Source of the DNA: Nemertoderma westbladi
Lineage: Eukaryota > Animalia > Xenacoelomorpha
DNA length: 64,000 nucleotides
Direction: 5' to 3'
Assembly (NCBI GenBank): GCA_032718475.1
Contig: JAUCBJ010007711.1
Coordinates: 1-64,000 of the forward strand
The translations under genes were made by a program, and so were the position numbers. Positions 3,584-34,368 of this stretch are shown here, piece after piece (within the stretch, counting starts at the first letter, position 1; the number at the start of each line of letters is the position of its first letter). Under the pieces are notes generated by a model, which saw nothing but the letters and a program-made list of their open reading frames with translations, had not been told where the DNA came from and ran no database searches.

Positions 3584-3830
3584 AAATACGAACCTGAGAG
3601 GTTTATTATTTTCCTCCCCAATTGTGAGACCCAGCAACAAATCAATCAAGGTTTTCCATTGTTTTTCGAAGTTGACCTCAGTCATTTCCAATTCCATCAA
3701 ATGTCCGTAGTATTCATTTCTTATTAAATGGATACGACTTCTGACTGATAAGTAATTTTCATTTTCAATTGGCCCTTTGCATATTGATGGCATCCCTAGC
3801 AGTTCGAAGGGCGAATCAAAGAGGTTTTAA
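3584..3830 (-). pseudogene. Degenerate paralogous fragment of the HEPN domain of the adjacent SAMD9-like gene
   Basis: IRNEYYGHLMELEMTEVNFEKQWKTLIDLLLGLTIGEENNK aligns with IRNEYYAHLPKLAMTNGVFEKQWKILSDLLLSLTIGEENNK (DNA 3601-3722 vs ~8183-8303); frame lost on both sides. Confidence 0.8.
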
Positions 3831-4211: not shown

Positions 4212-7200
4212 TCAAGTTGACTCTTTCTCGCACTCTTCTACATTGTCAGCTTTCAATTGACCGACGGTGGTGAACACCAAATTAAATTTTATAGGTACAC
4301 GCGCCTTTCCCATTTGTCTAAAATTTTCTTTAACACCAATATGGTTTACAGTCAAATTATCATAACCATCAACTCGAATTAAATCTTTTGAATCGATGGG
4401 ACGCCCTGTAAATTCCTTCAGTTCCTCAGTGAGTTCTTCAGTTCCTTCACGGAATGGGATTATTCCGGCAATTCCAGTTCCCTTTCCAACACTAAACAGT
4501 ATTTTGTTGGAGTTCTTCTCAACAATATCATCATCTTTAAAAATCATTTTAGGTATTTTAATATGTTTTTTATCTTCTTGGAGACTTTTTATGAATAACA
4601 GAACACCATGGAAGATATGAGATAGGGTCACATCTTCAAATTTCTCCTGCCAAGTTTTAGCAGCAAATATGAGACTATCCAAAGTGTTTTTGTCATGAAC
4701 CTGATGTGGTGCCTTGTAATGCAATATTATGGCTGCTCTAATAAAGTCCTCGAATGTGGAAGACAGGACCTTGGCAGGAGCTTTGGTCCAACGACATTCT
4801 GTTTCTTTAATAATCAGACGCAGTTCGAAAGGTCGCAGGTCAATAAATTGTTTCCGTGTATGTCCTTGATCTGACCAATATCCTACGAGGTCACCAACTG
4901 GTATACACATATTGTCTTTAACACATGTGAAGAAAGTTTCTAAATCAGTTGAACACAAGCGTGTGGATTTCAGCCCATGATGCATTTTTAAAATGTCAAG
5001 AAACAACTTGAAGCGTTGCTCAACATTGATGGTTCTTTCACATAAGCGCTCTTCGCTCTCTAGGCGTTGATATACATCCATAATTTTACCACATTCCTCT
5101 ACACAGTTTTTGAAGGCACTCAACTCTCCTTTTAGTGCATCAGAATATAAATTAGATTTTTTTTTGCATCGATGTTCAAAAAACGTATCCAATGTGTATA
5201 AAATAGCTTTCAATTCCCCAATAAACGCACCAGGATGATACTTCCAGGTATTAAAATAAACACGATTGTGTAAAACTGGTTTGCTTTGAGCCAATTGGAA
5301 AGCAATTCTTGCCTCTTTTCCGATTTCTAGGATATTCTCTAACGTTTTATCTTTTTCTGCTTTTGTTAAAATACTACAAGTGCCGGTACCACTAAAGATT
5401 GTTTTAAAATGCTTGATTTGGTTGCACAGTAAATGTCCATACGTTACTAGTGAATCTGCACTTATTCCAGTAGAACTTTCCAATGTTTCATATATTTTGA
5501 GTCCCAATACTTTCTTCATTTCTTCAATGGACTTTTTGTGATCTTCTAATTCGTACATGAGTCTTGCATATACTGATCGCACCCTATTCATGTGATCTGC
5601 CATTCTCCTATCACTCTGTAACTTTTCAATTATTATGGGTAAAACTTTTCCTGCCTCATCCTTATCCCAATTTATTAAATTTTGAGTGAAATTTGTGTAA
5701 TGGTAATTTTGTGATGAATTCTTCATAATCAAATCACTTACAATATATCCGATGTCTTCATAATTTGAATCAGTTAGATTGTTCAAAGTATATTCCAAAT
5801 CCTTTACAAATACACTGATCACCACCGCTGAAAAAAATTCCTCTTTTAAATCTGTTGGTACACTTCCATGACTAATGCCAGAATTGTGTCGTCTTTTTGT
5901 AGATTTGAGATGTTTCAGATCAGAGAAGATGTCATCAAGACCTTCAGCATCTGCAACACATTCAGTTAACACATATGGAATAAGACAATGTTCAGCCAGT
6001 TTTATACCTGCTCTCCCATACTTATCACTATTTTCATCAGTGACAAACAATTCACCAATTGGGCCAATATTGTCACGCAGATTTGTAAATGTTATCGGTT
6101 TGTTCTCCATGCCCAAAATAGTTGAAGCGATTGTCAGAGGAAGCTTTAGTGCTGTGGAATGTTGCCTCATCAAGCAGGCAAGTCTCAAAACTCGCCGCTC
6201 AAATTCGCTAGTATTTTCAATACATTGGTTAACATGCTTTTTAATCCTTCCGTATTCTCCTGTAAATTTCATTAGCCCCAGTAAAAAAATTGTATCGCCC
6301 GATTTGTCATAAAGATCCCTGAATGCTGCACTGTCAACTGGATCATCCAATCGCGACTTCATATAAACTTTTAGTTCACTTTGTTTATCCACATTACAAA
6401 TACCTCCATGGGTATCCTCATGGTAAAATTTAGTGGCAACGCTTTGACTTGGTATTCGCAACACATGCAAAATAACACAGTCAACATTTCTTGCTCCTAA
6501 ATTTAGGCTAATTTGCCCAACATCAGTTGTAGAAAATTTATCATCAACACATAACAATAATGGGAGCTTACCAGAGCGGACATAAATGTCTTTAGCAGCA
6601 TCATAAAATTCGGTTTCATCAACAATATGCAGTATTATTTCCATTGCTGGGTGTCTTTCTCTCAACTTAAATAAGGTGACGCGTGCAGCAGTAGTTCCCC
6701 CGCCAGATGGGTCATGCATTACTGTAATGATGTTCGATTTTGGTTTGGTCGGCCAGAAAGGCTTCTGCTTCAGCCTACCCTCCGCCATTCTGCGCAGATT
6801 CTGCATTGCTGTTCTATCAACATATAATTGCCGTTTGTCATTGACGTACAACATTTCTGGAGTTATTTCATTTCCCTTCAAATAATCAATTTTGCAAATA
6901 TTCATTTCTTTGTCTAAGTTGCTGCCCAAACCTTTCCAGGTTTCCTCTCCAATATTTCGGTGATACATTGTCATCAAAGATTTGTAGTCATTGAAAGTTT
7001 TGGGTGGCATATTCCATGTGGTATGGGTACGTGAAGGGAAAATGTACTCTTCCTGATCACTAAAATTTGTATTGCAAAACTTTTTAAATATTACTTCGCA
7101 CAGTATGTCTAGTTGGAGAGGAATAATTTTAACTTTTTGCGCCTTTAGTTCAGCAAGATGTTGATATGCACCATTGGTGTTGAGGGCAAAGCAAAATATG

Positions 7201-8735
7201 TTAAACTTGTATATATTGCCCGATGCCTTAGTTTGTAGATCCTCATCAAACACAAAATTAGTTAAATATAATATTAACGTTTGTATGTCTTTTGTCGATT
7301 CAATATCCTCCCCAAATGATAGGATTGTAACTGTCACTTCTCTTGGCCTATCAAATTTTTCAGCAATGCTATTTATCAATGGCCCAAATTCGGGTACTAA
7401 AATAGATTTAAATTTCTGTGTAGCTTCCTTTTCGTTCATTCGCACATATAACGTGACCTTTGAAGCACTTATCTTAGACGTTCTTGATTCTTTAACTTGG
7501 TTGATTTCAACAGGCTTGATTATGTCTACAGATTTATGTTGCATAATCGAATTCTTAATAAATTCAAAGGCAGTATTTTCATTATTATCCAAAGGTTTAG
7601 CAAAATCGATCACCACATCCCACGGAACAGTCCCAATGGCTCGTCCATAGTGTCCAAAACCAGAAAGTATTACACAACGGTTCAAAAAATCTTCCAAAAC
7701 TAGAATCCTGAAACCTTCATTATTTTCAGTAATCAACTGTTTCCAATTCTCAAAAATTTTATCATCATAATCATAGCCACTTATCACAACGGGTAATTTT
7801 TCACCTTGCATTTTATTAAAGTATTCTTTCATATCTTGTTTCAATTTTTCAACACTGTCACGAACAATAGGAAAAAGACTACTATTGATTATGCATGCCA
7901 TTTTTTTGTCATTAAGAATTTCATCAAACCAATTTCTAAATTCATTTAAATTGCTCTCATCCCATCCCCTACTGTGTTGGTTAGGATTAAAGGTACTTCG
8001 AATATCATCTGATATCCCCAGAAGTAATTGTGTTTGCAATTCTTGGTTATCTACAACCCATCCAACAATCCATCGTAATTGCTCGACATTTGTTCCCATA
8101 CTTCTCATTAAGTCCGTCAGGATTTCGTCACATGATGTCGGATTCATTTCTTGATTTTTCAACTCTTCAATACGAACTTGAAGTTTATTATTTTCCTCCC
8201 CAATCGTGAGACTCAGCAACAAATCACTCAAGATTTTCCATTGTTTTTCAAAGACACCATTAGTCATTGCCAGTTTTGGCAAATGCGCATAGTATTCATT
8301 TCTGATCGAACGGAGATCTTTTAAGCAAACCATCTCCCCTTCCAGCTTTAGCAAATCAAAGAGGGTTAGTATTAGTGTTATATCAAAATTAGATGCATCC
8401 GATGCTACACCTCTTGGATAAAGTTTTGCCATGAATAATTTAGCATCTTTGTTTGCTGAAATTTTTTTCTTATTATCTGTCAGGAAATGTAAAAATGATT
8501 CTTGGCTTTCGAAGTTATCACATAATTTCTTCCTTTTTGCATCTATGTCGTAAACGTTTGCACAATCTTCTCGCAGGCCTTTTGGGCCTAGTTGGATGAG
8601 AATTTCTATGCATTTGATGTCATTAATTTCACTGATACCACTTTTCATAAGACCAGTTGGAAACACATTATCTTTCTGATCTTCAAACTTGAGTTTTTTC
8701 ATAAGCATTTTACGATTATCTTCTAAAATTTGCAT
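4212..8735 (-). CDS. SAMD9/SAMD9L-like STAND NTPase with N-terminal DZIP3/hRUL138-like HEPN domain (intronless, 1507 aa)
   Basis: Uninterrupted 4.5-kb ORF. HEPN-like FDITL...LRSIRNEYYAH...FEKQW; SIR2-like segment (VPWDVVIDF); SAMD9-type Walker A MHDPSGGGTT and Walker B LLLCVDD; helical/TPR-like region; C-terminal OB-like IKFNLVFTTVGQLKADNV. True start uncertain: the frame continues upstream past one TAG at 8862-8864. Confidence 0.8.
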   Translation of the reverse strand: MQILEDNRKMLMKKLKFEDQKDNVFPTGLMKSGISEINDIKCIEILIQLGPKGLREDCANVYDIDAKRKKLCDNFESQESFLHFLTDNKKKISANKDAKLFMAKLYPRGVASDASNFDITLILTLFDLLKLEGEMVCLKDLRSIRNEYYAHLPKLAMTNGVFEKQWKILSDLLLSLTIGEENNKLQVRIEELKNQEMNPTSCDEILTDLMRSMGTNVEQLRWIVGWVVDNQELQTQLLLGISDDIRSTFNPNQHSRGWDESNLNEFRNWFDEILNDKKMACIINSSLFPIVRDSVEKLKQDMKEYFNKMQGEKLPVVISGYDYDDKIFENWKQLITENNEGFRILVLEDFLNRCVILSGFGHYGRAIGTVPWDVVIDFAKPLDNNENTAFEFIKNSIMQHKSVDIIKPVEINQVKESRTSKISASKVTLYVRMNEKEATQKFKSILVPEFGPLINSIAEKFDRPREVTVTILSFGEDIESTKDIQTLILYLTNFVFDEDLQTKASGNIYKFNIFCFALNTNGAYQHLAELKAQKVKIIPLQLDILCEVIFKKFCNTNFSDQEEYIFPSRTHTTWNMPPKTFNDYKSLMTMYHRNIGEETWKGLGSNLDKEMNICKIDYLKGNEITPEMLYVNDKRQLYVDRTAMQNLRRMAEGRLKQKPFWPTKPKSNIITVMHDPSGGGTTAARVTLFKLRERHPAMEIILHIVDETEFYDAAKDIYVRSGKLPLLLCVDDKFSTTDVGQISLNLGARNVDCVILHVLRIPSQSVATKFYHEDTHGGICNVDKQSELKVYMKSRLDDPVDSAAFRDLYDKSGDTIFLLGLMKFTGEYGRIKKHVNQCIENTSEFERRVLRLACLMRQHSTALKLPLTIASTILGMENKPITFTNLRDNIGPIGELFVTDENSDKYGRAGIKLAEHCLIPYVLTECVADAEGLDDIFSDLKHLKSTKRRHNSGISHGSVPTDLKEEFFSAVVISVFVKDLEYTLNNLTDSNYEDIGYIVSDLIMKNSSQNYHYTNFTQNLINWDKDEAGKVLPIIIEKLQSDRRMADHMNRVRSVYARLMYELEDHKKSIEEMKKVLGLKIYETLESSTGISADSLVTYGHLLCNQIKHFKTIFSGTGTCSILTKAEKDKTLENILEIGKEARIAFQLAQSKPVLHNRVYFNTWKYHPGAFIGELKAILYTLDTFFEHRCKKKSNLYSDALKGELSAFKNCVEECGKIMDVYQRLESEERLCERTINVEQRFKLFLDILKMHHGLKSTRLCSTDLETFFTCVKDNMCIPVGDLVGYWSDQGHTRKQFIDLRPFELRLIIKETECRWTKAPAKVLSSTFEDFIRAAIILHYKAPHQVHDKNTLDSLIFAAKTWQEKFEDVTLSHIFHGVLLFIKSLQEDKKHIKIPKMIFKDDDIVEKNSNKILFSVGKGTGIAGIIPFREGTEELTEELKEFTGRPIDSKDLIRVDGYDNLTVNHIGVKENFRQMGKARVPIKFNLVFTTVGQLKADNVEECEKEST

Positions 8736-9045
8736 TATTCCGCCAGTATATTGTTTGCATTCCGTTTCAAATAGATTTTGGAGTACTGTTGTCCCTTCCG
8801 ATAGAAGAAGTCCAATAAATTTTAGTCCATTTATATCTTGTGGCGATCGTAGCGGTGGACTCTAATAGCCACAATTCCCTGAAGTACTTTCTGCATTACT
8901 GCTTGTTTGTTTAGCGGTATTAGAAGCGTTTGTTATAATTGACTCATCTTCACAAGTCAAAACATCATACGGATTGCTCACTGAAACTCGTTCATGTGGC
9001 TTATTTGGATGAAGTTGCCTTGAAATTCCAGTCTTTTTTTTTTTT

Positions 9046-11616
9046 AGATTCCGTTTCCTTTCATTCCGTTTCCTACGCGCTCGTAAATGACGCGGAAGAA
9101 GCCACGTTCATGGGCCCACGGGAGGATTTTTTTGCGTGTCTGTAAAGGGGTAAGGGATGTCTAATAAGGAGTCAAAGTCCTTGTACAAGTCGGGATATGA
9201 TATATCGCCAAACCGAGTTTACAGATCCTCTCGTTGAACAACAGGTCGAGAACGGGTTGTGGCAACATTGAGGGCTCAATGCCGAGTGTAGGTTGACGCT
9301 TGGTTTCAATAAAGTATCGGTAGGAATTCTCAAACTGTCCGTGCCGAGGTAGCATTTCCTGGAAGGACGGAGGGGTGAAGGATGCATCAGCGCTACGGAA
9401 GGTTCGTGTGAATACATGGGTGGCTCCAGTTAAACCACGGATATGTATTAATCAGGTAGTACCGAGTTCATCATTCGATACGGAACCTTCGTTATAGTAT
9501 AGCATTACGCCATAATGTTGGATGATCTCAAGAGTGTGGTTAAACTCGAGATACGCGACAGTTTCATCCACTTCAACCGGCGTCCATAAACTGCCAAGGG
9601 ATCCAATGGAACCTCGGGCAATAACTACCGATTTGTAGCTTTGGACATTCTCTACGACGGATTTTCCTTTCAACATGGTAGAGAGTTTAACTTCCCAGAA
9701 CCGTACGTCGATGTTCCAGTGAATCAATCGATCACTAATGAAATTAGCAAGATTCCGAGGGGGTGCGGGTTTATCCTCGATAGTTTGTATGTTAAAGGGT
9801 TTGCGAAAGGCGTTCAGTTTGATTATGTGATCTAGATGTTTCTGCAGGGGTTCGATTTCCATGACATCGAGGGGATAAACTAAGGGTAGAAAATCGATAC
9901 TGCAGGCGGAATCCTCGGGTTTCATCACATAATGTTGACCGAGTAGAACGAAATCCGGATGGTCCTGAATTCCATAGAATGGAGGATGGAGAGGATGTCT
10001 TTCCAGATTTTTATCCCGGATTAGTGACTTGATTTGGTCAGTTCGACCAAGGGGAGCGATAATCCACTTATCTGTTTCGTCGAGAAGGGGCTCTACAATG
10101 TGGGTTTCCAGCATCGGAGCGTCTGCGACTAGGTTGGAGTTAGAGATGTCAGTGTCAAAAAGTATCGTTTGGGTTTGACTGTAAGCGACACCGAAACGCT
10201 TTACAGACCTGGACGGGTGAGCCTGCGCTTTACCTTGGAACCCTTCCATAAGAGTCTGGACCGTGGGTTGAACCAAAGAAGCTAGCTTGCGCTCGTTGTT
10301 TAAACGTTCACGCTCTATCTGTTCCTCTTCTTTGCGAAGACGTTGGTTTTTCTCAGAGCATCCGCGAGGGAGATAGCCTTTCCTCGTTCGATTTCCTCTT
10401 GTAGGAGGCGGACTTCGGATTCGAATTCCGGTAGTCTCATGCAACGGACGACATCAAGCTTGCCGGAGAGTTTAATAGGGTCATCTATGTCGATAGAGTT
10501 TCTAAGGGCGCTAAGGAACTCGGTAACCAAGTAGTTACGATTGAGCGTGGAGGTCCTGGCGAAGGTGAGAGGGGAAGTCCACATGGATTCTTCGCATTGC
10601 AGCAAACTGCCGCGACCGATGCCGACCATAGAGGGATGAACAGGGGTCAGTTATTCCTCTTGGTAACGGGGAGCAATCTGTTCCCCCATGGAAATAGAGA
10701 TACATGGCTTCGGAGAAGCGGGGGTCGGTCGGAGATCGGTCGGGTTTCACCATAGGCAACATCGTGCCGGGGGAGAACTCAGGGACACCGATCATGGGTT
10801 TACGCACCCTCTGCAAACTACGCAACTGTTTCTCATCGACATTAAATCAATAGCCAGAAGTCAGTTTTGTTCGGGGGTGGAGACTTTACACATCTGACTT
10901 ACTATACTCCTCCATGTCATAAAAGGCATCAGGGAGGACCGGGAGCGGGTGACCCTCGGTGAGGTACATCATAGTGTGATAGAGTCGTTTGATCTCTTTA
11001 GCTGGGTTAGGATGAATGCCCCTGGGGTACAGAGTTTGTTTACCGTAGATCCTGTTTACTTGCGACCTTTAGATACGTTTCGCAGAGAAAGGTGACATAG
11101 TCCTCGAAGCGGGAGAGATGAGAAGGATTCTCGGTGTCATCATCCGCAATGCCAACATGAATCTGATAGTCATGTTGTGTTCAGGTCTCATTACTACGTT
11201 GCCGTTCAACGTGTAGTTTGAACATCTTCATGTCCCATTCGACATGCTGGTCATCAACATCCCATAAGTCCATGTGGTCGTGACCAGTGGTGAGGAAGCT
11301 GTTATAACTTCCATCTCGTTCAGTATATTTGAGAATGAACTCACGATATTGTTGTTCGATGTTGCGCTGTTCGGGGTTCATCGGCGGTTCGATGTAGTAC
11401 CCTGAAGGATCCATACGCGGTTCCATGCTTTGAGCGAGCTTGGTGGATTCACCGGTGTAATCAGCCATCATCGTATCCATCATCTCCGAGTTTGAGTAGA
11501 ATAATGTGTATAGGGGGTAGGCGAGCGTCACCTCCCCAAAGGCGCTGAGACACGCCGCGACGCAGTCCCTGGTCAACCCCTTATGGTGAGAATCGAGTTT
11601 GCAACTACCAGCGGTA
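9046..11616 (-). pseudogene. Disrupted orphan ORF (~850 codons) downstream of BEL/Pao pol, env position
   Basis: ORF pieces 11576-11181, 10825-10535, 10629-10315, 10444-9452 and 9355-9161 join via stops/frameshifts into one protein-like frame; more GC-rich than flanks; begins after a TTTTTCAG acceptor-like site; no recognised domain. Confidence 0.55.
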
Positions 11617-12429
11617 CTGAAAAATTGTGGCTATATGCTTAACTCTCATCAAGCCAGGGAGATGAGGGACTCCCCCGGAGCCATCACTGATCTACTACAA
11701 CTATAGCATCTATGAAGTGTTGGACAATTGTGTGTACCTTAAAATTTCACTCTATTTGTCGGTATTTCACACTATTTAGCTTAATTTGGTGCTTATTTGT
11801 GCACTTTTGTTCAACATACAGTTCAAAAACGCTTAACTTAAAATATTTACCAGAATGTCACATTTTGTGTATCCATGATAACAATATTACCTTTCCCGTA
11901 CAAGCTGTGCTAAGCGGTTGCATTCACAGTTGTACGAGTTCTATCTATGTTTCCTGGGAAACACGTTGTTTCGTTGTTATTTAATTAATTATTCCGTGAC
12001 ATGTTGGTAAATAGAGATTAGAATGCTCACCTCTCACACTTATTTCACACTAGTAACTACTGTAATAGTTATTTGGGGATTTATGGCGATATTAAATTTA
12101 ATTGTGGTTACTAATTTGTGTTTAATGATTTATGTTTAATATAAAATTTCGAAATTTTTTTTTGAAAATCGCATTTTTCTATGCCCGTAACGTTGCACAA
12201 ATCTGCTTCCACGATTGTGTATTGTCGTTAGTAATTAGTCATTCATTTTGAATTATTTAAGTTTTAAGTCAAATAATTTATTGTTGCATATGTAGCTATC
12301 ATATACAACGCACAATTAACATAAGTAGGATTTGTTGCTACAGTGCACTTGTAGTCTAATACTAATACTTATGCTATACTAAATGGCCAATAAATAATTA
12401 CACACTCAATCGTAACCTTTTATAAGACG

Positions 12430-15400
12430 TTACTCCAGTTTGTACGTCAGACTGCTTGGTCTAACCCTCTGTTGCCCGTAGTTACCGGAACGTTCCCTTG
12501 CCAATTCTAGTAAACAAAGGCGTCCGATTGGTTGATTGAAATAGTGTACTTTGGGTTTGGGTGTAGCTCTCCAAATAGCCAGTTCAACTGAGCATACCAA
12601 TTCATCGTTACCCGTATGAACTTCTGTTATACAACCCGTTTCCCAGTTCTTTCTAGGCTGGTCCTGATCCACTAAGAGTACTATATCACCAACAACTGAT
12701 GCATTTTCCTTGTTGGAAAACCATTTGGTCCTGAGCTGGACTGAAGGTAAATAGTATCTTTCGAAATGTAAAGCAAATCGCCGAGATAGTAGTTGCATCA
12801 TTTGCCAAGTACCTCTCAACAGCTCATCACCATCCTGTGGATCAGATTTAGGCAGCATAGTTACTGGTTTTCTTAGTAGGAAATGGGACGGTGTGAGGGG
12901 TTCCATGGCTTGTGGATTTGACGAAATAGGTAAGAGGGGTCTATCGTTCAAGTAGCTTGATATCTCCTCCAAAAGAGTTCTGCGTAGTTCGTCGGTTAAA
13001 TAAGCCTTACATGGGATGATGTGATGGAACGCGACCTTTGTACTTTTAATCAACCGTTCCCAACTTCCGCCCCACCAGGCCGCATCGGCGGCATTGAACA
13101 TCCATGTGGATGCCAACACTTTAAGGTGTTCTTGAGCAGGTGATCGTACCAATCGGCAATGAATTTGGTGATTTCTTTATTGGCGCCTACGAAATTCGTC
13201 CCCTGATCGGACCTCATAGTCCGGCTAGTTCCAAATCTACCGATCTGTCTCCGGAGACAAAGGATAAAACTTTTCATCGACATGTCGTTAACCATATCCA
13301 GGTGGACGGCTCGAAAAGTCCTGCAAACGAAGATGACGCACCATCGTTTCACTAAAGGGCCCGAAGAGATCCATGCCGGTGTGGGTAAATGGGGGCTAAT
13401 AACAATCAACGCTTTCTCTCAGGAGTGCCGCCTCCAGTTGCATCATCGGTTGCTATAAATCCTTTTGCAAGGTATACAGTTTCGCAGTATTTGGTTGAGA
13501 GCCATGCGGGGTGTATAAGATAATAACGCGTTCTGATCTCGCTTAATATGTGTTCTCTCCCGGCATGATAGAGTCGGTAATGAATGTCCTGTATCAACTT
13601 GGTCGAATCTCGGGGTCAAATATTAATATGAGGAACATAGTATCTCTGGAGATCAGAGCGTTAGTGAGGCGGCCTCCAACTCGAATTAACCCATTTATCA
13701 TACTACTTGAGAATTTGTCCACCAATAGAGTCAAGGGATCGACGCTGAGCTGATTGTATTTCTCAGGTTTCTCAAGTCTTTGTGAAATTCTCAATAATTG
13801 TAAGTTGGATTTATCCACTTCATTAGGTGTTAAGCTTATCACAGATACGCTATTAATACTATACCTGTAGTGGAAAAGTTGTTTTAGTATAGTTATAGCC
13901 CTACATATCTTATCCCACGAGCTATAATGGTTTATGGCTCAGGTTATCAGTGGGGATAGACCAATATCCACATTGGGTACGTCTGACTGACCAGTGGATA
14001 TTTTGGGGTTGTCTGGGACAGCTTCAGCCCTGGATTTAATATTTGGGGAAGGGTCTGAATTTTGACTGTCTATTTTGTTTATATAATTGTTGGTTGCTAT
14101 GTCGATGGGCTTGAATAGCTTAGACTTAGATGGCCTGGTTTTTGGTTTGACGATTTCCAGACCCTTAACCTGTCTCATTTCCTCAGGAGTAATATGATCA
14201 GGCCATTGGTCCTCTGGTTGGGAAAGGAAATCGGGTCCATCCAACCAACACTTAGAATTTATCAGGTCGTTAGGGGTTGCACCACGGGAAGGTGTGTCCA
14301 CGGGGTATAGAGGTCCAGGGATGTACCTCCTTTTTTCTAATTTAGTGCGGTTGAGTATTATAGATACTCGGTTTGTGATGTACGTACACACTAAATACAC
14401 GTAAACTAACGGTATTAGTTAAGTATTCCAGCACTATGGCTGCAGTGTTTTAGGGCGTTGTAGTCCTATAGTAAGCTATAATGCCAATGCCCTTGTCACT
14501 TGCGTCGCCAAATACATGTAATTGGTACGTGTGTCATGGTAGAGCATTGGGGAAGTAAGCTCTGGGCACCCAAAAGTTTTCAATATCAGTTAAGGCATTT
14601 TCCTACCTGGACCAGTTAATCAATAACTCTCATGCCAGGGGTTCATCCCAAGTAAGATTCTGGTCCCACATGGTTTTTACTATCTGCCTGGCTTCCAGAA
14701 TTACAGGACTTATAAAGCCTATAGGGTCGAACAGTGTACTTAATATGCTAAGACAAATACGCTTTGTACCTGGAGGTCTAACCTGAACCTTGAAGAACAT
14801 TTCGTCCAGTTCAGTATCCCATCTGAGGACGAGGGTTTTGTTGCTGGTAAGTCGTCTTTGCTGAGATCTAAGTCATGGCTGACCCTTTCCGTCTCGGGTA
14901 CGGTAGAAAGGAATGTTGCTGGTAAACTTGGTTAAGCGGAAGCCACCTTTCTTCAAGCAATCGACTGTTCCCTTTGAGATGGATACAGCTTCTTGTACGG
15001 TAGGGACAGAATAGAATGTAAGTTGTCATCCATATAAATATATGTGTTTATTGTCGTCTGCCGTGCGGGAAACAATATGGCAGGTGTTTGAAGGGCTGGA
15101 TATTAGCCCGAAGGCTTGTATGGTCATCCAGTACTCTTTGGGTGGCTTGCTAACATCTCCTCCAGGCCACCAGAGGAAACGCAGACTGTCCTGATCCTCC
15201 TGAGTGACTTTAACCTGCAGGAACATACCTTCGATATCTGAGGCAAAGGCGACATCGAATTGCCGTAATCGAATTAATATCCCTGGAAGTGAACGCAATA
15301 AGTTAGGGCCGGCCATTAGTTGAGAGTTAAACGATTGTCCTTTATACAAGGCTGATCCGTCGAAAACCACTCGGACTTTGTCTGGTTTATCAGGCCGTTT

Positions 15401-18400
15401 TACATAATGGTGAGTTATGTAATAAGTGCAATCGGTGTGGGGAGTATCCGGTGGCACCTCTGTAGCGTATCCTTCACTAATAGTCTTGGTCATTTGTTCG
15501 TTGTACATCCTATGTGCATTAGGATCACCAGTTAAACGTCTCTTGAGTTGACTAAGACGTTTTTTCATATCTACCTTCGTCAGGGATATAGCGAGTGGTG
15601 GTATTTTGGATTTGTATAGCTCGCTCTTCCTCAATAGATAGATCATGGGAATTTTCTTCCATCTTTTGTTGCTCTACCCAGTTGGATATTTTCTCAGTCA
15701 ATGTGGCATCAGCAATAGATTTGCGTAATTAAATATCCCTGTCTTCTTCGGTGTCTGAATAACCATCCGTTAACGGGGTCACTCCTGTTAGCAAACAACG
15801 GGTATATTCTCCGTATTCTAACATGGTGGTTGCATTGTCCGTGTTGAAACGAGAGGTTGGTAGGTCATTATCGCTGGAGTCACTCGACTTGTAGTCATAA
15901 ATTTTTGAAATTTTTGAGCCAAAATCGGATCCTCCCTCCGCTTCCATGATCCTGTTAGGTCTGTGTGAATGGATGTAATTGATGGACAGATTTTCAGAAT
16001 GAATGTTATTCATCGAAATCTTGTCGCTTACTCTTCTTTCGTTTAAGGTCTTTATGGATGAACCGGTGCAGAACCATCCTATTCTGGTTCTACCAGTGTA
16101 AGTCGTCAATGGTGGAGGAGAACTAGGGAAATTCTCTAGAATTTCCATGGCTTCCGGTCGAGTGGGTATCTCGGTATGTTATTGTGTTTGACAAAGTCAT
16201 TGCTATCCCAATCATACATAGGGGCTTGACTTTCCGTAAAGTTCTTTATAGCGACCATCTTGATATTATCCAGCTTGCATACCTCGTTGGTATCTCCTGG
16301 GTCTGACAGTGAGACCTTGAGACCTTGTAATAACGTGTTTGTATGATCGATTGCCATATTTGCATCAGAAAGGTTTAGTTTCATAGGATGTCTGTCATTC
16401 TCATCAAAAAGTTCGTCTGCAAGATCTTGGTCGATGAAAGATCCCGAACTTCCGGTATGCAGTAAGGTGTTTACTATGATGCTGCGGTTATTGTAATGCA
16501 GTCGGACTTGTAAAACGGGGAATTCTCGAACACCAAGCGATTTTGGGTTTGAAGTTCGCTGATATTTGGTCATCTGATGTCTGTTCGGGAGTAGTCGGTG
16601 ACTCATACGTGATGGCTTTGTATACCATTACGTTGTTGCAACTCTCCTCGTCAGTGGAAAATTCATCTGCATCAAATTCTTGTTCGGAACATCCCGAGGT
16701 ATTGTAGGATGAATGATCAGTGAACTAACTTTCGCTTCTATCTGTGGGACCATGTCTTTCTGATGCAATAGATAATGATGGTTACCATTACATTTAACAC
16801 ATTTATAAGTGTCCTTTAAATAGCATTTGCTTCTACTGTGCCCGGGACATAAGCACAGGAAACATACTCTTAGCGTGTTAACTGTCTCTCTTCGTTTCTC
16901 GAGTGATAATTTGATGAATTCCGGACACTGCGATAATCTATGGGACTCTTTATTACATAGCAAACAGCCAGTGCAGGATACTGATTTGATAATCGGTTTG
17001 AGAGTTTTCACTTCCAAATGTTGGGTCTGTTGAGTTTTTACAGTTCGGACGGGGGCGCAGTCGCATGAAGGTCTATCAGACTGACCCTTGCGTCTAGGGG
17101 ATGGGGATCTAGGGTCCTTTCGCTGTTGTGTCGTATGTTTGGTATTATCTGCGATGTGGTAGGAACTCTCACTTCCCTCAGATTCTTCTTCACATGTAGA
17201 TAAATCTGTTTGGTAAACTCGTTCCCGACATTTGGTTGAGGGGGTCTTGTCGATTTTCGGGTCTACGTTGAGCTCGCGACGTTGAGTAATCATGAGTAAT
17301 GAGGATTCATAGTCGAGGTATTCCAAGAAGTCCTTCATACTTAGAGCTGGTTTATTGCGGAGTTTTGCGTTCAGTACGTTACGGTCCTATCGTGTAGATA
17401 CACTGCCCTTTGGTAGGGCTGCAGAAATCATGCCAATGACAACCGGCGTGTCATAATATTCATGTTTGTCCAACCAATCTAGTTGTCTACAGATTTATTT
17501 AATCTCATCAACAAATTATATCATTTCCGTAGTTATCACACGTTTATGATTGACCAACTTTCAATACAGGTATTGGGCTATTGAAGCTTCATCTCCGTAC
17601 CTGACGTGTAACAGCTTCCATGGTTTTTCGGATAACCTTCCAAGCAGTCTATTACGAAGCGTAGTTTCTCACTATTGGGTAATGGTGAACTAAATATACT
17701 GTCTTTTACATATTCTCTAAATGGAAGCCATTTTAACTCATTGCCATCAAATTTAATAATTTCACCTACTTTAACTGCCTGACGCGCTTCAGTACGCGCT
17801 AATTGGCGGGTGAAACTATCCTGGGCTATAGTACTATTAAACATAGTATTAAATGTAGAGTTATCACAGGGGCCTACATTGGTCTGGGGGGTCTATAAGG
17901 ATTGTTGATACTTTGTGTGTCATTTTGTATCCCTGTGTTATACTTAGGGTTTCTAACATTGGGTGAGATAGGTGGGTGTGACATATTTTCTGCTTCAGTG
18001 CCATTTATATTAGTGGCTCTCTTTAAGATTTGATACTCAGGAGAGTCCAGGTTCCTGACCATTACAGCGTTGTTCGAGGCCAGGAGGTCCTGAGAATTAG
18101 CCAGCTTTTGGTATAGCTCCTCTAGAACCTTGGCGGCTTATACAGATTCACCTCGCAACTCTTGCAAACATCGATGCTGCATTATCCACGATTGCTCGTT
18201 GTTTTATTAGTTTCATTTTATTATTTACTGCCTCCTGCATAGCTTGCAGATTTAATGAGGATTCGTTTAATCCGTCCCTATAAAGGGAGTCCTCATTCGC
18301 CCGGGCGACTCTCTCTTTCGCCCCAATGGGTCCCGCATCCCTCATCAACTCGACCGAGCCGATGGACACGACCGGCATGGAGGCGGCATAATGTCCATCA

Positions 18401-20303
18401 CGGGAGTCGATGATGGGGGACAGACTAGGGCCCAGAGTGTGAGTGTTCAGTGGGTGGCGAAAGCAGTGCTGGACATTCTGTCTGCCAGCAGTGGGATTGG
18501 TCGCGCCTGTTTAGGTCGAACTGTAGGCGTAACTATTCTATCCCTATATACTGTAGAAGTTTTGAGCTGTAAACCGTCTGCCTGGTTACTTTCTACAGTA
18601 GTTGTCGAAATACCAATGGGTGTAAATTTGGTTTGGGTCGCCATAGCCGCAGATGTTACATTCTGCTTAGAGGGGTTTATTAATATACAAGGAACAATAT
18701 TTGGCGCTGCAAGAGGGTTGTTCATTGGTCTGAAAAAATCAGAGTCGGAGTCAGTTCTAAGATCGTTAGTATTTTTAACAGAATTAGCAGGGTGTTGAGG
18801 TGGCAGTTCTGGCAGGTGATGACGTTCAGCTCGTTCTAAGCGTCTTCCGCTTCTAGAAGTTCGAGATTTGTCCGATGATTTATCGAACTTGTCGGAGGAG
18901 ATATAGCAATCGAATTGTTGAGTCAAGTTTTCCTTGCGGTGTTCCTTTATTTGAGAGTCTGACTGTTGTTTTTCTATCGATTCAATCTCTTTAAGTATTT
19001 CCTCTTGTTGCTTTTATGCCTGCTTTCCCCTTTGCTGAGCTTGGAATTCGTATTGCTCCGCTTCCCGTTTGGGTTTATATTCCTCCACTTCCAACTTGAG
19101 TTTGCGTTCATATTCATCTGCTTCCCGCTTGCGTTTGTATACCTCCTGCAAGCTTTGGTCTTCTGCCTGGTACTGAAGTTGTTTCAATTTATTTTTATTT
19201 TCCTTGAGATTCTGTTCCATCGTTGTTCTTCGTTGACATTCTGTTTCTATTTCATCACGGATATCCCTTAGGATCCTATTAGGATTCGTCTTATCAGTTC
19301 TTCTTCTCCCATTCGCTTTATGTAATCTCCGAGATGTTCACAGATTGCATTTTCTTGTCCCGTTTAAGTCTCGGGTTCAGTCTGCATATATCCTTCAACG
19401 TCTCGGGTATCGATCAGGGATGGATGGTCAGAATCCAGAGTTTTAGGACGAGGGGATTCGCCATGGAAGGAGAGACAAGTACTCGCCGACTGAGCGAATT
19501 TTATTATGTTTTTATTGGCTGCAGTTTCTATCACTGCAGCTCCAGTCCGGATGGCAGACTGATAGAAGGCGGAGAGGATTATCCTGATACGGATTATTCT
19601 CTCCTTTATGTCATAAAAGAATGATGGAGGATTGTCTATATTTGGGTCCCGTAAGGCGGTTTCACAACTGGCGATTTGCTTCGCAAAGCCAGTCTGAAAT
19701 CCCCTTAGGGTCCTTCCCACTTTACTAAGGTCTGTGGGATCAGCTGGTACTTTTAATGCTGTCAATTCATCAGAGGTGGCAGAATGTAATGGAAAAAACT
19801 TATCCAATGCTGGATAATTATAATATCATAATACATCCTGTTGCATCTCTGTGACAGACATAGACAGTATTTGAGCCTTAGTCCCTTTCTCGGAGGCCCG
19901 ATAATTGTCAATGGCCCTTAGTAGGCTGATTAATATACCTGGGGAAGGGGCCATAAGTGGGTCCATTCCAATGGCAGGTTTAAACCTGTTGTGGCTGTGT
20001 CGTCTTCCGTCCAGTCTAAGTTGGAGGTTGCAGTCACTCGCGGTCGATCAGATTGTAATTCCAGGCCAGTAGTGGGTTGGTTAGTTCTCGTGACAGTGGG
20101 TGATTGATTTAGTTTTGAGGGCATAACCCGCGGGTTACCCGCTTGATTCAAACTGGAGTATTCCAGTTCGGGCAATTCTCTAGTCGGAGATCTGTCCTGT
20201 CCGGGTCGGAATGTATTGGTATCGCAGTTACGTCAAGGTTGGAGGTGTGGTCGCTGAGAGAAATGTCTGAGGCGCTCTTGTTGATATTTGAACGATAAGA
20301 CAT
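12430..20303 (-). mobile_element. Decayed BEL/Pao LTR retrotransposon gag-pol
   Basis: In order: gag (KFDGNELKWLPF, DUF1759-like), three Cys/His knuckles (CLLC..H..C, CFLC..H..C, CVKC..HH.LLH), protease (LLHTGSSGSF, D>H), RT (KVRVVFDGSA, SDIEGMFLQV), RNase H region, integrase (HAGREH, RSDQGTNF, WWGGSWERL), C-terminal RTKW (DUF5641-like). Many stops/frameshifts; LTRs not found. Confidence 0.92.
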
Positions 20304-22299: not shown

Positions 22300-23680
22300 T
22301 AACCCTCTAGCGGGAGACTGGGTAACTGAAGAAGGAAGGATTAGTTTCCCTACAAAGCCACAGCCTATGGTCTATTACATATCTACCAAGTTTCCGATTG
22401 ACGGATCATAAATAACGAAATGTTGGAAGGTTTTCACTTTCATACATTTAGCCCTCTAGCGGCATATTAAAGAACTACGGATCGATCACCTTCCTCACAA
22501 AGACGAGGCATGTGGTCTAGTACATACCGGTACTGTATATTCCAAAATTCAGCTTAAATAGATTAAGATCAAGGAATTCGCGAAGGTTATCACTTTCCTA
22601 CATTTCGCCCTCTAGCGGCAGACTCGAAAACTCCGGACCGATTACTGTCCACACAAAGACTTAGGATGTCTTCTAGTACATATATGACAAGTTTCAGCTT
22701 GATCAGATCATAAATAACTAAATGGGAGATTAATTTCACTTTCGGGACATTTTGCCTTCTAACGGCAGACTGGAGAACTGTAAACGGATTCGCCTCATTT
22801 GAAAGTCATAGCTAATGGTTTAGTACATATCTGCCACGTTTCATCTTAAACGGATTAAAAGCAAAAAATGGGAAGGACATTTAATGTTTAGACATGTGGC
22901 CCTCTACCGGCAGACTGGAAAACTTCGGACCGATTACAATCCACACAAAGACTCAGGATGTCATCTAGTACATATATGACAAGTTTCAGCGTAATCAGAT
23001 CATAAACAACTAAATGGAAGAATAATTTCACATTCGGGACATTTCGCCCTCTAGCGGCAGACTGGAGAACTGCAGACAGATTAGCCTCCTTTGAAATTTA
23101 CAGCTAATGGTCTAGTACATACTTCCCAAGTTTCAGCTTAAACGGATTAAAAGCAAAGAAATGGGAGGGCATTTAATGTTTAGACATGTGGCCCTCTAGC
23201 GGGAGACCATTGCACTGATGGTGTCTGAAAGTCTCTCAAAAATCTCAACTTTTGCTCATATTGATACCTACAAATTTTCAACTTGGCAGCTTTAAATCCG
23301 ACAAAGTTATTAGCATGTCAAAATCGTAACGACGACAACGATTTCACTTTCAGACCTTTGGCCCTCTAGCGGCAGACTGGAGAACTGCAGATGGATTCGC
23401 CTCCTTTGAAAGTCACAGCTAATGGTCTAATACATATCTGCCAAGTTTCAGCTTAAACGGATTAAAAGCAAAGAAATGGGAGGGCATTTAATGTTTAGAC
23501 ATGTGGCCCTCTAGCGGGAGACCATTGCACTGATGGTGTCTGAAAGTCTCTCAAAAATCTCAACTTTTGCTCATATTGATACCTACAAATTTTCAACTTG
23601 GCAGCTTTAAATCCGACAAAGTTATTAGCATGTCAAAATCGTAACGACGACGACGACGACGACGACAACGACGACAACAT
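22300..23680 (+). repeat. Tandem ~148-bp repeat array (Helentron/HINE-like non-autonomous element) carrying GCCCTCTAGCGG
   Basis: Nine units with motif at ~22302, 22451, 22607, 22754, 22899, 23046, 23191, 23361, 23506; shared CAAGTTTCAGCTT; ends in (GAC)n; single unit at ~1705-1830. Family assignment tentative. Confidence 0.7.
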
Positions 23681-27896: not shown

Positions 27897-29612
27897 GGGT
27901 AAACTGGGGTAATTTGGGACATGGGGGAATTTGGGACAGCCTGGGGTAATTTGGGACAAGTCTTTTCTTAACTGTAAGTGCAGTGGGGTTTGGTGGGTTG
28001 TTTAAATTATAGGCCTACACTTATCTTCATACTTTCTCTAGCTCTTTTAAATGCTGTAGGGCTGTCGGGTAGACTACCCGTCACAGGCAGACAGGTAAGT
28101 CGCAAGTGTAAGGTGTTCGCTTTCAGATATTTCGCCCTCTAGCAGCAGACTGGAGAACTGCAGCAGCAGCAGAATAATCACCTTCATCAAAAAGACACAG
28201 CATGTAGTCGTGGTCAGGTACTTATATTCCAAGACTCAGCTTAAACAGATTAAGATGAAGAAAAGGGAGACATATGGGTAAGCGGAAGATCACTTTCATA
28301 CATTTTGCCCTCTAGGAGCAGACTGGAGAACAGAACTGCAAACCAATTACCGACCCCACCAAGACTGCAAGACACACTACTGACGCAGGATGTATTCTAA
28401 AGAGAGCACATACTGATACATACAGACAGACAGACAACATATTTGACAAGTTTCAGCTAGGACGGATCATAAATAATGGAATGAGTCAAGGATGTCACTT
28501 TCACACATTTTTGCCCTCTAGCGGCAGACTGGAGAACAGATGACCGATAACCTTCTTCCCAAAGATTCAACATGTGGTATAGTAGGGCCTATCGAGTAGC
28601 ATAAGGTAATCGAATTAGAATCACGGAAATGGGAGAAGGGTTTCCAGTTTTCACTTTCAGACATTTCGCCCTCTAGGAGCAGACTGGAGAACTGCAGATG
28701 AATCACCTTCCTCAAAAAGACACATCATGTAGTCGTGATCTGGTACTATACTGCTATATTCCAAGACTCAACTTAAACAGATTAAGATCAAGTATATGGC
28801 AAAATGGGTACAAGGGAAGTGGAAGGTTATCATTTTCATACATTTTGCCCTCTAGTGGTAGACTGAAGAAATGCAGACCACTTACCGACCCCTCCAAGAC
28901 ACAGCCGCAGCAGCACATTGATGCAGGATGTATTCTGGCTGAGCACATACTGGTATAAAGATCAAAGACAGACAGACATACAATATATTTTTGACAAGTT
29001 TCAGCTTGAACGGATCATAAATAACGGAATGAGCCAAGGATTTCACTTTCAGATATTCGGCCCTCTAGCGGCAGACTAAAGAACTGCATGCAGATTAGCC
29101 CCCTTTGAATGACACATGACAGCTATGAGCTAATGGTCGGTCTAATACAAGTATGACAAGTTTCAGCATTGTCTTTTGTTCGGATTAAATGCAGAGAGAT
29201 GGCAGATGGGAGGACATTTATTAATGTTTGACATGTAGCCCTCTAGCGGGAGACTGTTGTACTGATTGTGTCGAACAGTCTCTAAAATCCCAACTTTTGG
29301 TCTTATTGATGCATTGTACAATTTCTCAACAAAGTTTGTGTCAATTACAATGGGCTACTACTGTTCGATTTATGTTATGTCCCAAATTCCCCCAACTGTC
29401 CCAAATTGCCCCATGCTGGGGTAATTTGGGACATTGATGAATATTAATTAAAAAAAGGTAATTAATTATTTGAAAATGAAAATTAAGTAATTAGTTTGAT
29501 AGAATGGGTACATGGTGCATACTTGATAAGGTCGGATTATCAAAAAAATGTTTTTAAGATTCTGAAAAAAGCTTTAAAGGACGATTTTGTCCCAAATTAC
29601 CCCAGTTTACCC
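27897..29612. mobile_element. Nested TA-TSD MITE (pogo/Tc1-mariner-like)
   Basis: TA|GGGTAAACTGGGGTAATTTGGGACA...TGTCCCAAATTACCCCAGTTTACCC|TA, perfect 25-bp TIR. Confidence 0.8.
28110..29330 (+). repeat. Second array of the GCCCTCTAGCGG repeat family
   Basis: Seven diverged units (motif at ~28134, 28307, 28513, 28668, 28847, 29060, 29238) similar to 22300-23680. Confidence 0.75.
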
Positions 29613-30886: not shown

Positions 30887-31975
30887 GTTAGGCCAGGCGT
30901 GTCTAACCAAGGTGCAAGGAATCTAATCATATATATCCCCACCGCTGTTGGCTGTCTGTTAGTACCGGTACTGTAGTAGGCTGGCTATGTAAATACTTCC
31001 CGGTACCGTGGATTGTTTATTTGAAAATTTTGAACACAAGCGCACGAATCTGTGTAGTGTTAGTATGCAGAGTGCAACGTGCTAGTACGGGCTCTGGCGG
31101 AGTTAAGCGCAATTCCTTCGGTAAATTAACGAGACTATTATTTTTGGATGGAGGACCATGTTAGAGGTCAGAACACAGTTGGTGATCGGTATAGCTAATT
31201 TGCATTCTAGAACTACAGGCCAAAAACAAACTAGCTAGCCGACCCCTACCTAACTCTATGTTGGGCCCACTGGTAGAATATAAATGCAATCAATTTTTTC
31301 AAATGAACATTTTTCTTATAGAGGGAAGACCGGCGATTAATTTAAATACAAATATATCGCCACTTTTATTTTTTAAATGCGATAAATTTACATGAGAACA
31401 AAATACATTCACTTTTTTTAAGAATCCAACATTTACATTAACTGCCATAAAATGTAGCTACTTTGGTTTAACACGTTCAAAATGTATCAAAATTTGCGCT
31501 AATTATTTCTGCATTCACCCATGCAACTCATTTTGGATGAGTACTAAATCCTCCTAGTCAATTAGCCCGATTATTATCGGGGAAACGATAATGAGAGAAT
31601 ATTCAGAGAAAGTATACTCTCTGACATTTGGAAATATTTACTACAGTTACTAAGGTAACTAACTATTCTGTGAACGGCACTCCCTTACATGTATTACCTG
31701 GCGTTGTGTAGTTTCTAGGCGACTGACTGTATACACTAAACACGCAGGCACAATCAAGTCGTTTTAAAGCACACGTTTTAAATTCGGATAGGCCGAAGCG
31801 TTATCGTCGAGATAAGGAGAATTCGCGCGACTTTTTCCCGGATTCTTGCATTTTTTGTCACAAAAGGCGAAGGTATTTTAAAGGTAAATGGAAATCTGCT
31901 CACCGGATTTTAACTCTTGATGCCGATAAAATAATAAAAGATGCTGCTTTCCAACGAAACGATTCTAAATTACTC

Positions 31976-34368
31976 TTGGAGTTACAGAGTGTAGATTTAA
32001 TTGCCAAAGGTGTGTGTGTCCATGATGATTGTTATGCATCATACACAAGAATTATACGTGAAACTCAAACTAAGGATAAATCGGAAAATCAAGTTGGGGA
32101 TTTTGATAAAGTTAAAGAAGTCGTCGACAACCAGATAATACACAGAGAAGGAATATTGTCGATTCTGAATTTACACAAAGCATATGGAACAGGTTTTGGT
32201 ACAGACAATGAAAGAAGTTATCGCAGTACATTAAAGAAGCGGATCCAACAAGAGTATAAGGATAGAATTACCTTCTTACAGGTTGATGGGAAAACTCCAG
32301 AACTTGTAGCAAACTTGCAGAAATTGTTCATCCGCATTGCAATCAAATACAATAGCCAAAGATAAGAATATAATAATTAGGAATGCGGCTGAATATATCC
32401 ATGATGATGTTGTCGAATTTATAGACAAACATGAAAACATAAGTGGTGGTAAGATACCAAATATTGAGTCGCTGAAAGATATACAGAAAGAATTCCCAAA
32501 ATCACTTGAGACATTCTTTAACTCAATATTAAAAAGAAAGGGCCATTTCAGTGCCGACAAAAGTAAGGTTTACATCAATTCCCTTATGTCAGATGTCATC
32601 AATGCTATTTCTAATGGCAAACTCGTAACATTGAAACATTTTTCTTGTTGGCCTTGGCTTGCATAACATGATGGGAATGAAAACTCCAATTAGAATACTG
32701 TCTCACTTAGGTCATAGTATTAATTATAAGTTGGTTTGTGAGATTGAGTCTGCTGAAGCAGAAGCTGAATTAGAGACATTGGTGGAATCGGCTCCTGACC
32801 ACAGCGAAAATACCAAAAACTTAGTTGCGTTTTGGTGGTTTGATAACTTCAACCAGAAAGTCGATTCAGTTACTGGCCATGGAAACATTAATATCACAAA
32901 TATTGTTTAATTTGTAGATTCTTGTAATGATTCTGAAGAAATAATCTCGGAACGTACAACAATGTACAGGGATTTAAATAACCATGAAATCTGTAGGCCC
33001 ATAAATAATATTCTAAGTGCTGCTGAATTTCAACGTAATATGCAGCCTGGTATACTCTGTGTTCCACCAACTCATACAGAACAGTCGCAAATTATAGAGG
33101 ATAAATTGTTTCAGGAGAAGTATTTGCACTGGGTTTTAATACGAATTTTAACGCGTAAAGATCCCTCATTCCCGCAATTCTCTGGATGGAATATTAAGAC
33201 CTTACAGCCTCCTGTTGGTTCGGTTATTACTAACAAGGTTGAAAAAACGGAATTGAAATACTTACCCCCCGTTTCTAGTCCAGTATCAGAATTTGGTACG
33301 ATAAAAAAGGTATTTGGTATAATTTTAAAGCGTTGTGATGTTGTAAAATGTAAATATGCCAATGTTACTGTGGATGTTGGTGCTGCAATGAATGCGTATC
33401 GAGTATTGTGGAATGACCATATTTATATATTTAATAGCATTTTTCTTCACCTAGGGGACTTTCACTTTATGAGGGAATATTTCGGAATTTTAGGAAAATT
33501 AATATCAGGCTCTGGGTTTGAAGACATCATATATCAGTCAGGGATTTGTACAGATGGGGCGATAAGTAGCATTATATCAACTTCACCACATTACAACCGG
33601 TATTGGTACATACATAGCCATTTTTCTGAGTCCCTTGAAAGGCTTATGTTTGAACGATTTGTAATAGAACAACCAGAACTGGAGTGGAGGATATCGAAAT
33701 CAAAGCAAAATTTAGGTACTGATCTCGCAAATGAACAATGCGAACACGACAAATACATTTTGCAGCAGTACAGTAAATTTACTGATGACTGCAAATTAGG
33801 TGTTTACGGTATTACTCCTATGTTTTGGACAACTTGTTACCTTGAAATATACACTGCAATCCACGCTCTTCACTGCGCAGTACAAACAAATAACTACCAT
33901 TTGAGATTATATGCATGGAAGTATCTTATAGCATGGGCGTTTTCACTAAACAAACAAAACTATTCTCGATTTGGCTCATATTACATCAGAAGTTTAGAGA
34001 CTATAGACATATCTCACCCAGGTTACCGGCAAATTATTCAAGAAAAGGGCTTATCTGTCCAGGCTCAGGACAAATACTTATGCCGCACTTCCATAGATCA
34101 ACGAGGGGAGCAGACCATAAACAAAGATGCTAAAGTAGCTGAAGATGCAGTACGTAAATGGACATTGAATCGAGCTGCACAAGCAGAAAACACCAAAGCT
34201 CTGTGCGAAATGGCTAATATTAAGCGACACTCTGAAGTATACAAATTACTCCGTCCTTCTGGCATTATTAAATCTGAAAAACTCATCCAGCAAATTTTAA
34301 ACGTGATGAAAACAGATTATCTGAATCCTTTTGAACTTTGTTTAAAACCCGACAAGCTTTGCAATTGA
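31976..34368 (+). pseudogene. Academ-type transposase, frameshifted and C-terminally truncated
   Basis: Consecutive ORFs 31976-32365, 32337-32666, 32659-32910, 32962-34368 with LSHLGHSINY, FDNFN, VDVGAA, LHLGDFH, HYNR, NYSR, DQRGEQTINKD; no XPG/Cys-rich tail seen. Confidence 0.7.

Follow-up and report, generated by a model that had tools for sequence, protein, structure and literature searches.

A minus-strand open reading frame (ORF) on contig JAUCBJ010007711.1 of Nemertoderma westbladi (assembly GCA_032718475.1), within the 64,000-nucleotide stretch (positions 1 to 64,000) that we analyzed and refer to as the window, encodes a 1507-amino-acid protein whose domain order is almost certainly HEPN, linker, SIR2-like, STAND, TPR, and OB. 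By analogy with characterized proteins, we lean toward the view that this SAMD9-family STAND protein, in which a DZIP3-type HEPN domain has likely taken over from AlbA_2, is an antiviral switch complete in itself that would cut RNA only when triggered.

The ORF (4212..8735) runs from ATG to TGA without an internal stop and is the longest in the window; the plus-strand frame there is stop-rich. The chance of a stop-free frame of such length at the given base composition is ~1e-53. From stop to stop, the frame occupies 4212..8861 (minus strand), which amounts to 1549 codons without a stop or frameshift amid decayed transposons. The original prediction, made from the letters of the DNA alone, had described an intact 1507-codon ORF without giving its strand; no break was found between ATG and stop, but this ATG was probably not where the coding region originally began, as described below. 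The motifs that it had quoted were all located in the encoded protein: FDITL (amino acid [aa] 117), RNEYYAH, VPWDVVIDF (aa 370), HDPSGGGTT (aa 674), and LLLCVDD (aa 726).

The body of the protein has the SAMD9 fold

We modeled aa 330-1507 with AlphaFold2 (AF2), using an alignment built from the relatives found with HMMER (see below), and obtained a mean predicted local distance difference test score (pLDDT) of 80.8 and a predicted template modeling score of 0.73. When this model was submitted to Foldseek, the top match was human SAMD9 (9zjr; E 1.1e-29), and the second fold family was Avs5 (E 7.8e-12). VIA-align superposed the body on SAMD9 with a Z of 27.1 and a root mean square deviation (rmsd) of 5.7 over 779 aligned residues, covering SAMD9 433-1589, at 14-16% identity in the structural alignment; the next entry had a Z of 12, and Apaf-1 had a Z of 8.6. 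Profile comparisons agreed with this assignment. With a 13-sequence profile (bridging rows included), SAMD9 entries alone fell below E 1e-21 in the PDB, and a profile of 10 HEPN-branch sequences matched a tilapia SAMD9-like protein (P0042) in hhalign at 99.1% and E 2e-18. Foldseek, VIA-align, and the profiles thus bore out the prediction of a SAMD9-type body, and the structural match extended from the SIR2-like part through STAND and TPR to OB, as expected. The competing assignment, to NACHT or NB-ARC, was ruled out by the lack of a Pfam match, by the lysine-less Walker A motif, and by the Z for Apaf-1 (8.6) as against that for SAMD9 (27.1).

Within the SIR2-like part, model residues 1-227 aligned to the SIR2 domain of DSR2 (8wkn_B; Z 11.3, rmsd 4.2, 186 residues aligned) and also to FAM118B (9r0p_D; Z 7.9). 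By analogy with SAMD9, this domain is likely to be catalytically inactive. The STAND module contains H674, G679-G680-T681-T682 (6690-6716), the Walker B aspartates D731-D732, and the sensor R760. The ATP-site residues of SAMD9 are H737, 742-GGT-744, D799/D800, and R837 (PMC13600222), and in the sequence alignment these map to H674, G679-G680-T681, D731/D732, and R760, respectively. The Walker A motif, without a lysine and with the upstream histidine present, is in the SAMD9 style.

A DZIP3-type HEPN domain forms the head

Pfam family HEPN_DZIP3 (PF18738) matched aa 141-201 with 36.1 bits (cut-off 27; E 6.8e-9), and the score rose to 42.4 bits when the codons upstream of the ATG were included. 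A profile built from 10 relatives, without the query, gave the query HEPN 59.6 bits, compared with at most 8.1 for shuffled sequences (188 scored of 200). The intact R-x5-H predicted for the N terminus is present as R145-x5-H151, and the polar residue N146 follows the arginine; passages of PMC3710099 define the HEPN RNase motif as Rx4-6H with a polar residue after the R. A fold search of 48,161 chains with the N-terminal model (pLDDT 48) returned generic helical bundles, with a best Z of 7.2, and no HEPN among the 50 matches listed. The HEPN assignment rests on sequence profiles because this model was too poor for a structural check: for the DZIP3-type head originally predicted, the Pfam match lies above the cut-off and the relatives' profile scores above the shuffles, but the fold could not be confirmed.

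Neither AlbA_2 nor SAM was matched by Pfam in the query, and the AlbA profile yielded no score, in agreement with the proposal that HEPN stands in their place. In the relatives, the linker region gave weak apolipoprotein-like helical matches. The top ESM Atlas cluster for the query (score, 0.98; 1444 aa; 84 members) carried PF18738 in 45% of its members.

Distant relatives share the architecture

Through an exhaustive HMMER search with aa 1-1200 as the query (E up to 0.001), we recovered 36 proteins, the eight best of which were 1414-1495 aa long with E values of 7e-39 to 3e-25. PF18738 was above the cut-off in five of these eight (P0002, P0003, P0004, P0007, and P0008), below it in P0006, and absent from P0005 and P0009; P0016, which is not among the eight, was also below the cut-off. 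A search for the same architecture elsewhere, as the original prediction had proposed, therefore did find it: some 10 distant relatives share the design. They are very divergent, with 20-34% overall identity, and R-x5-H is kept in six of the 10 HEPN-branch relatives having an N terminus (P0002, P0003, P0004, P0007, P0016, and P0021; the truncated P0014 was excluded from this count).

Word-index homologue searches found no relative among 7263 candidates, two among 6520, and the query alone among 6485; because these searches missed the relatives found by HMMER, they are uninformative on absence. In viral contigs, none of 64 pattern matches was confirmed as a relative, nor was any of 146 in JGI contigs, and PADLOC matched neither the query nor four HEPN-branch relatives. 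Among the HMMER matches, the SAMD9-like chassis was also seen with AlbA_2, with a PNP head (P0024 and P0045), or with TCAD9/kinase heads (P0019, P0034, P0035, and P0041), which points to more effector exchange on the same core.

HEPN appears to have taken the place of AlbA_2

We built a core tree, from which the effector was excluded, using the query together with 24 of the other 35 aligned sequences (25 rows in all); fragments and part of the redundant sequences had been dropped. In this tree, 12 HEPN-branch rows made up one side of a branch with a Shimodaira-Hasegawa-like approximate likelihood ratio test (SH-aLRT) value of 94. A STAND-only tree (34 rows, with two short rows dropped) was compatible with the core tree (89/78 to 91/78). 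AlbA_2 is carried by rows neighboring the HEPN branch (P0013, P0015, P0023, P0029, and P0033). Of these, P0013 (Macrostomum) and P0033 had contributed to building the AlbA profile; the independent scores were 38.9 bits for P0015, 25.8 for P0023, and 46.3 for P0029. HEPN and AlbA_2 were mutually exclusive, with both present in none of 45 rows (the HEPN scores there being partly by construction). Since its nearest neighbors carry AlbA_2, these sequence comparisons suggest that a DZIP3-type HEPN likely replaced the N-terminal AlbA_2 tRNase in this branch, and the effector swap put forward in the original prediction holds. HEPN is likely the derived state because the vertebrate row and bacterial-type rows have AlbA_2 too, although the root is a midpoint root only.

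Orthology to vertebrate SAMD9 was rejected when the query was grouped with P0042, the sole vertebrate row and a long branch (P value of the approximately unbiased test [p-AU], 0.0005), as was a grouping of the query with the Macrostomum-type P0013 and P0023 (p-AU, 0.02); the constrained groupings were chosen after inspection of the tree, and long branches are involved. With both forced groupings rejected, the query belongs to a separate branch of the SAMD9 family and is not an orthologue of vertebrate SAMD9.

The HEPN of the query scored best against that of a Branchiostoma HEPN-NACHT protein (P0020; 49.4 bits) and at 7-17 bits against the HEPNs of P0003, P0004, and P0007, hinting that HEPN heads have been exchanged repeatedly; a HEPN-only tree was mostly unresolved.

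P0015 comes from the amoebozoan Cavostelium apophysatum (EukProt) and is SAMD9-like, with its AlbA_2-like head (38.9 bits) and a full core. Literature passages place the SAMD9 family in animals and bacteria only, and P0015 may indicate that it reaches beyond animals, with contamination a possible explanation.

The 5′ end of this copy

The 42 in-frame codons upstream of the ATG scored 21.9 bits as a first HEPN helix, with shuffled sequences giving at most 6.5 (260 scored of 300), and the upstream stretch was 35% identical over 75 aa to the Branchiostoma protein P0020 (E 1e-11). This conserved helix upstream of the ATG implies that the N-terminal half of HEPN is duplicated, as in the relative P0002. 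The product from ATG 8735 would retain the second copy of the first helix, packed in a full helical bundle in a low-confidence model. Because conserved HEPN coding runs from the ATG up to an in-frame TAG (Table 1), the gene either is spliced there or is 5′ damaged. Four comparator acceptors in the window all end in TAG, and one of them has a similarly weak tract. The ATGs upstream, at 8896, 8830, and 8760, are out of frame. Whether an active protein is made from this copy we regard as an even question.

By eye, a basic stretch followed by N-[PR]-F-E-[VL]-L before the effector in P0015 and P0013 resembles the basic cluster and NPYDVL of 8865-9107. The Arg-rich stretch of 81 codons weakly matched an anellovirus capsid, below the cut-off, and this was attributed to composition bias.

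Table 1. Features of the HEPN-SAMD9-type gene and its immediate surroundings
Feature	Position	Strand	Basis
Full ORF from first in-frame ATG: HEPN, helical linker, SIR2-like, STAND (SAMD9 type), TPR, OB	4212..8735	-	1507 aa
DZIP3/hRUL138-type HEPN, ~aa 34-200	8136..8636	-	Pfam PF18738; relatives' profile; four-helix bundle in low-confidence model
HEPN motif R145-N146-x4-H151 (R-x5-H, polar residue after R)	8283..8303	-	Sequence
Helical linker, ~aa 201-335, no AlbA_2 signal	7731..8135	-	AF2 mostly pLDDT under 50
SIR2-like Rossmann domain, ~aa 330-557	7065..7748	-	Structural alignment to DSR2 and FAM118B
SAMD9-type STAND/NOD module, ~aa 585-930	5946..6983	-	Structure and motif alignment
TPR-like helical repeats, ~aa 960-1400	4536..5858	-	AF2 secondary structure; alignment to SAMD9
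C-terminal beta domain, SAMD9 OB fold, ~aa 1410-1502	4230..4508	-	Model strands; alignment to SAMD9 residue 1589; profile match to SAMD9 C terminus
42 in-frame codons upstream of ATG, extra better-conserved copy of first HEPN helix	8736..8861	-	Profile score
In-frame TAG, phase-0 splice acceptor or premature stop	8862..8864	-	Pyrimidine tract weak, 6/15
Frame open for 81 further codons above TAG: basic cluster, NPYDVL motif, low-complexity linker; no in-frame ATG	8865..9107	-	12/5000 shuffles open
Partial second HEPN copy, R-x5-H kept	3602..3739	-	~480 nucleotides downstream of gene; 76% aa identity (31/41), ~81% nucleotide identity

A proposed RNase switch and the alternatives to it

Activation of SAMD9 has been proposed to occur by the clustering of its N-terminal nucleases in oligomers (PMC13600222), and passages of PMC8266594 state that HEPN activity, in RnlA, requires two juxtaposed Rx4-6H motifs. 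The oligomerization of the one and the motif pairing of the other make a trigger-gated RNase likely. By extension from SAMD9 (PMC13600222), the resting protein would be closed and ATP bound until a pathogen or stress cue opened it, and SIR2/SIR2 and OB/SIR2 contacts would then build dimers and, from these, oligomers. If HEPN RNases are a guide (PMC8266594), such clustering would juxtapose two R-x5-H motifs, carried on the helical linker, in one composite active site. This site would cut tRNA, rRNA, or mRNA, and translation would be halted in the infected cell. On these analogies, the HEPN branch as a whole probably has an RNase-switch role.

Several observations weigh against this interpretation. 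The link to SAMD9 was not seen in every search: run against the PDB with E values up to 10 allowed, the 10-sequence HEPN-branch profile by itself missed SAMD9, and single-sequence searches with the query protein reached no SAMD9. The winged-helix domain histidine (H985 in SAMD9, and a histidine in the relatives) aligns to E915 of the query, adjoining H916. The N-terminal fold model had a mean pLDDT of 48. In the core tree, the branch with an SH-aLRT of 94 carried no star, the branch of the query itself is long, and P0009 and P0014 were assigned to the HEPN branch by placement, with no HEPN signal detected in either. The motif residues R and H are lost in four of the 10 relatives with an N terminus (P0005, P0006, P0008, and P0009), so that catalysis is not required across the whole HEPN branch and the conservation in homologues foreseen by the original prediction held only in part. 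At the 5′ end, the in-frame TAG precedes conserved coding, and the interval 9130-8736 contains no ATG in this frame. The general logic of a sensor, an NTPase, and a HEPN has, moreover, been published before, both for NACHT proteins of invertebrates and for STAND-TPR-S1 proteins of bacteria (passages of PMC9646362 and PMC3710099).

The features of the 5′ end raise the question of whether this copy is an allele that was damaged not long ago or a young pseudogene, its original start lying upstream and severed by the TAG at 8864-8862 and perhaps also by the element ending near 9040. The conserved HEPN coding upstream of the ATG would fit such damage, as would the 81 open codons beyond the TAG (12/5000 shuffles) with their lack of an in-frame ATG, the out-of-frame ATGs, the weak acceptor tract, surroundings rich in decayed elements, and the partial HEPN copy 480 nucleotides downstream. 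We nevertheless consider it rather unlikely. The 1549 codons below the TAG contain no stop or frameshift, the TAG is itself a possible phase-0 acceptor (like the four comparators ending in TAG, one similarly weak), and translation from ATG 8735 would still include another copy of the first helix, one that packs in the model. We judged it quite improbable that the HEPN head is noncatalytic or secondary, serving in RNA binding, dimerization, or partner recruitment like the DEATH-fold heads of other invertebrate SAMD9s, so that the protein signals rather than cuts. In favor of such a role, the four relatives that lack R/H have an otherwise complete core, the literature searched turned up no experimental RNase test of a DZIP3-type HEPN, and invertebrate SAMD9s with adaptor heads are described in passages of PMC5445408. 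Set against this, both the query and the downstream copy retain the motif and its polar second residue, as do six of 10 relatives whose overall identity is 20-34%; HEPN occupies the position of a known nuclease; and, according to passages of PMC9646362, the motif is retained by 194 of the 202 DZIP3-HEPN proteins of the pearl oyster. An active RNase switch might also have a job other than antiviral defense, such as transposon RNA control, stress-linked translation arrest, or developmental cell death. HEPN proteins do act in RNA processing and stress responses as well (in passages of PMC3710099), but the closest solved structures are all antiviral or antiphage (SAMD9, Avs5, DSR2, and Avs3/4) and the strong divergence of the relatives (20-34% identity) fits conflict genes, which makes this option very improbable.

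Comparison with known systems

Human SAMD9 and SAMD9L (9zjr; PMC13600222 and PMC5445408) have the same order and fold from SIR2-like through STAND and TPR to OB and the same ATP-site residues, whereas the query has neither SAM nor the AlbA_2 tRNase and carries HEPN and a helical linker instead. Invertebrate HEPN-NACHT receptors, reported in passages on pearl oyster (PMC9646362) and corals (PMC10236652) and represented here by Branchiostoma P0020, place the same HEPN family N terminal to a STAND NTPase. As described in those passages, they use NACHT with LRR, WD40, or TPR sensors; the query is built on the SAMD9 chassis, which includes SIR2-like and OB domains, and its Walker A has no lysine. 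The bacterial SAMD9-like Avs5, Avs6, and Avs9 share the chassis and have swappable N-terminal effectors (parts of PMC12680541 and PMC12931631), but the effector of the query is HEPN and its gene belongs to an animal genome rich in introns and retrotransposons. The same abstract domain order is found in bacterial HEPN-STAND-TPR-S1/OB proteins (for example, Npun_F6454 and Bacillus cereus gi 229028907; passages of PMC3710099). These carry a Swt1-like HEPN where this is stated, are likened to the query here by description, and are not linked to SAMD9 in those passages.

The SAMD9 heads named by Mekhedov and colleagues in 2017 are SAM, DEATH-fold, and kinase; we found no HEPN head in the portions of that text and three supplements that were available (PMC5445408), nor any HEPN in passages and four supplements of Legrand and colleagues, 2025 (PMC12680541). 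In the parts available, Anantharaman and colleagues, 2013, described animal DZIP3-HEPN fused to NACHT, TPR, and others (PMC3710099), and a bacterial STAND survey (10.64898/2026.01.04.697583) and the Avs5 paper (PMC12931631) tied Avs5 to SAMD9 without a HEPN-SAMD9 fusion. The open literature searched contained no description of a HEPN-headed SAMD9, although subscription papers and supplementary tables may hold one. The architecture was originally thought uncharacterized; this stands for the fusion itself in the open literature, but not for the general sensor-NTPase-HEPN logic, which has been published.

Surroundings of the gene

The window is eukaryotic: it contains a P450 gene whose introns are of the GT-AG type, together with a Gypsy-like pol and a retroelement that bears DUF5641. 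The partial HEPN copy downstream of the gene differs from it by five synonymous changes and 17 changes in amino-acid-changing codons, which suggests a paralogue remnant or an exon belonging to a different HEPN gene. Immediately 5′ of the gene, a GC-richer decayed coding region (9050-11630, minus strand; pieces of 149, 111, 103, 333, and 96 codons) ends at an A12 run near 9040. Neither Pfam nor the Atlas (at ≥0.9) gave a match for this region, which is possibly a retro-inserted element.

Farther away on the minus strand lie a decayed retroelement with DUF5641 (12430-20200), presumably BEL/Pao-like, and a Gypsy-like gag-protease-reverse transcriptase-RNase H-integrase element with one stop in pol (35670-40400). 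A three-exon cytochrome P450 gene (46102-49150, minus strand) seems to be nested, in antisense orientation, within a gene on the plus strand (~30400-50800), between exons of the latter, that we take to be fatty-acid-hydroxylase-like. Two long plus-strand frames of 212 and 485 codons at 31727-34368 had no Pfam match and are, we assume, transposon-like. Arrays of a ~146-nucleotide repeat with a conserved CCCTCTAGCGGCAG core lie at 22300-23650 and 28100-29290, with a single copy at 1694-1750.

Implications

A broader proposal, to which we would give somewhat less than an even chance, is that this eukaryotic SAMD9 branch exchanged a Schlafen-like tRNase for a HEPN RNase and is a one-protein analogue of the RNase L pathway, with sensor, switch, and dimer-activated RNase fused, its HEPN heads drawn, possibly repeatedly, from the invertebrate HEPN-NACHT pool and catalytically dead paralogues kept as regulators. 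With every component and the overall plan known beforehand, such a protein is moderately surprising. If the broader proposal is correct, SAMD9 oligomerization would serve in general to cluster nucleases, with effectors being swapped on it in animals as they are in bacteria, and two unrelated RNases on one switch would show bacterial-type effector exchange on the SAMD9 chassis in eukaryotes. Because HEPN RNases need two juxtaposed motifs, a natural HEPN-SAMD9 fusion is a direct readout of the SAMD9 clustering model. The protein would also allow a DZIP3-type HEPN to be tested directly, for the first time, as an RNase of immunity and, with it, provide a way into the many DZIP3-type HEPNs that invertebrates possess.

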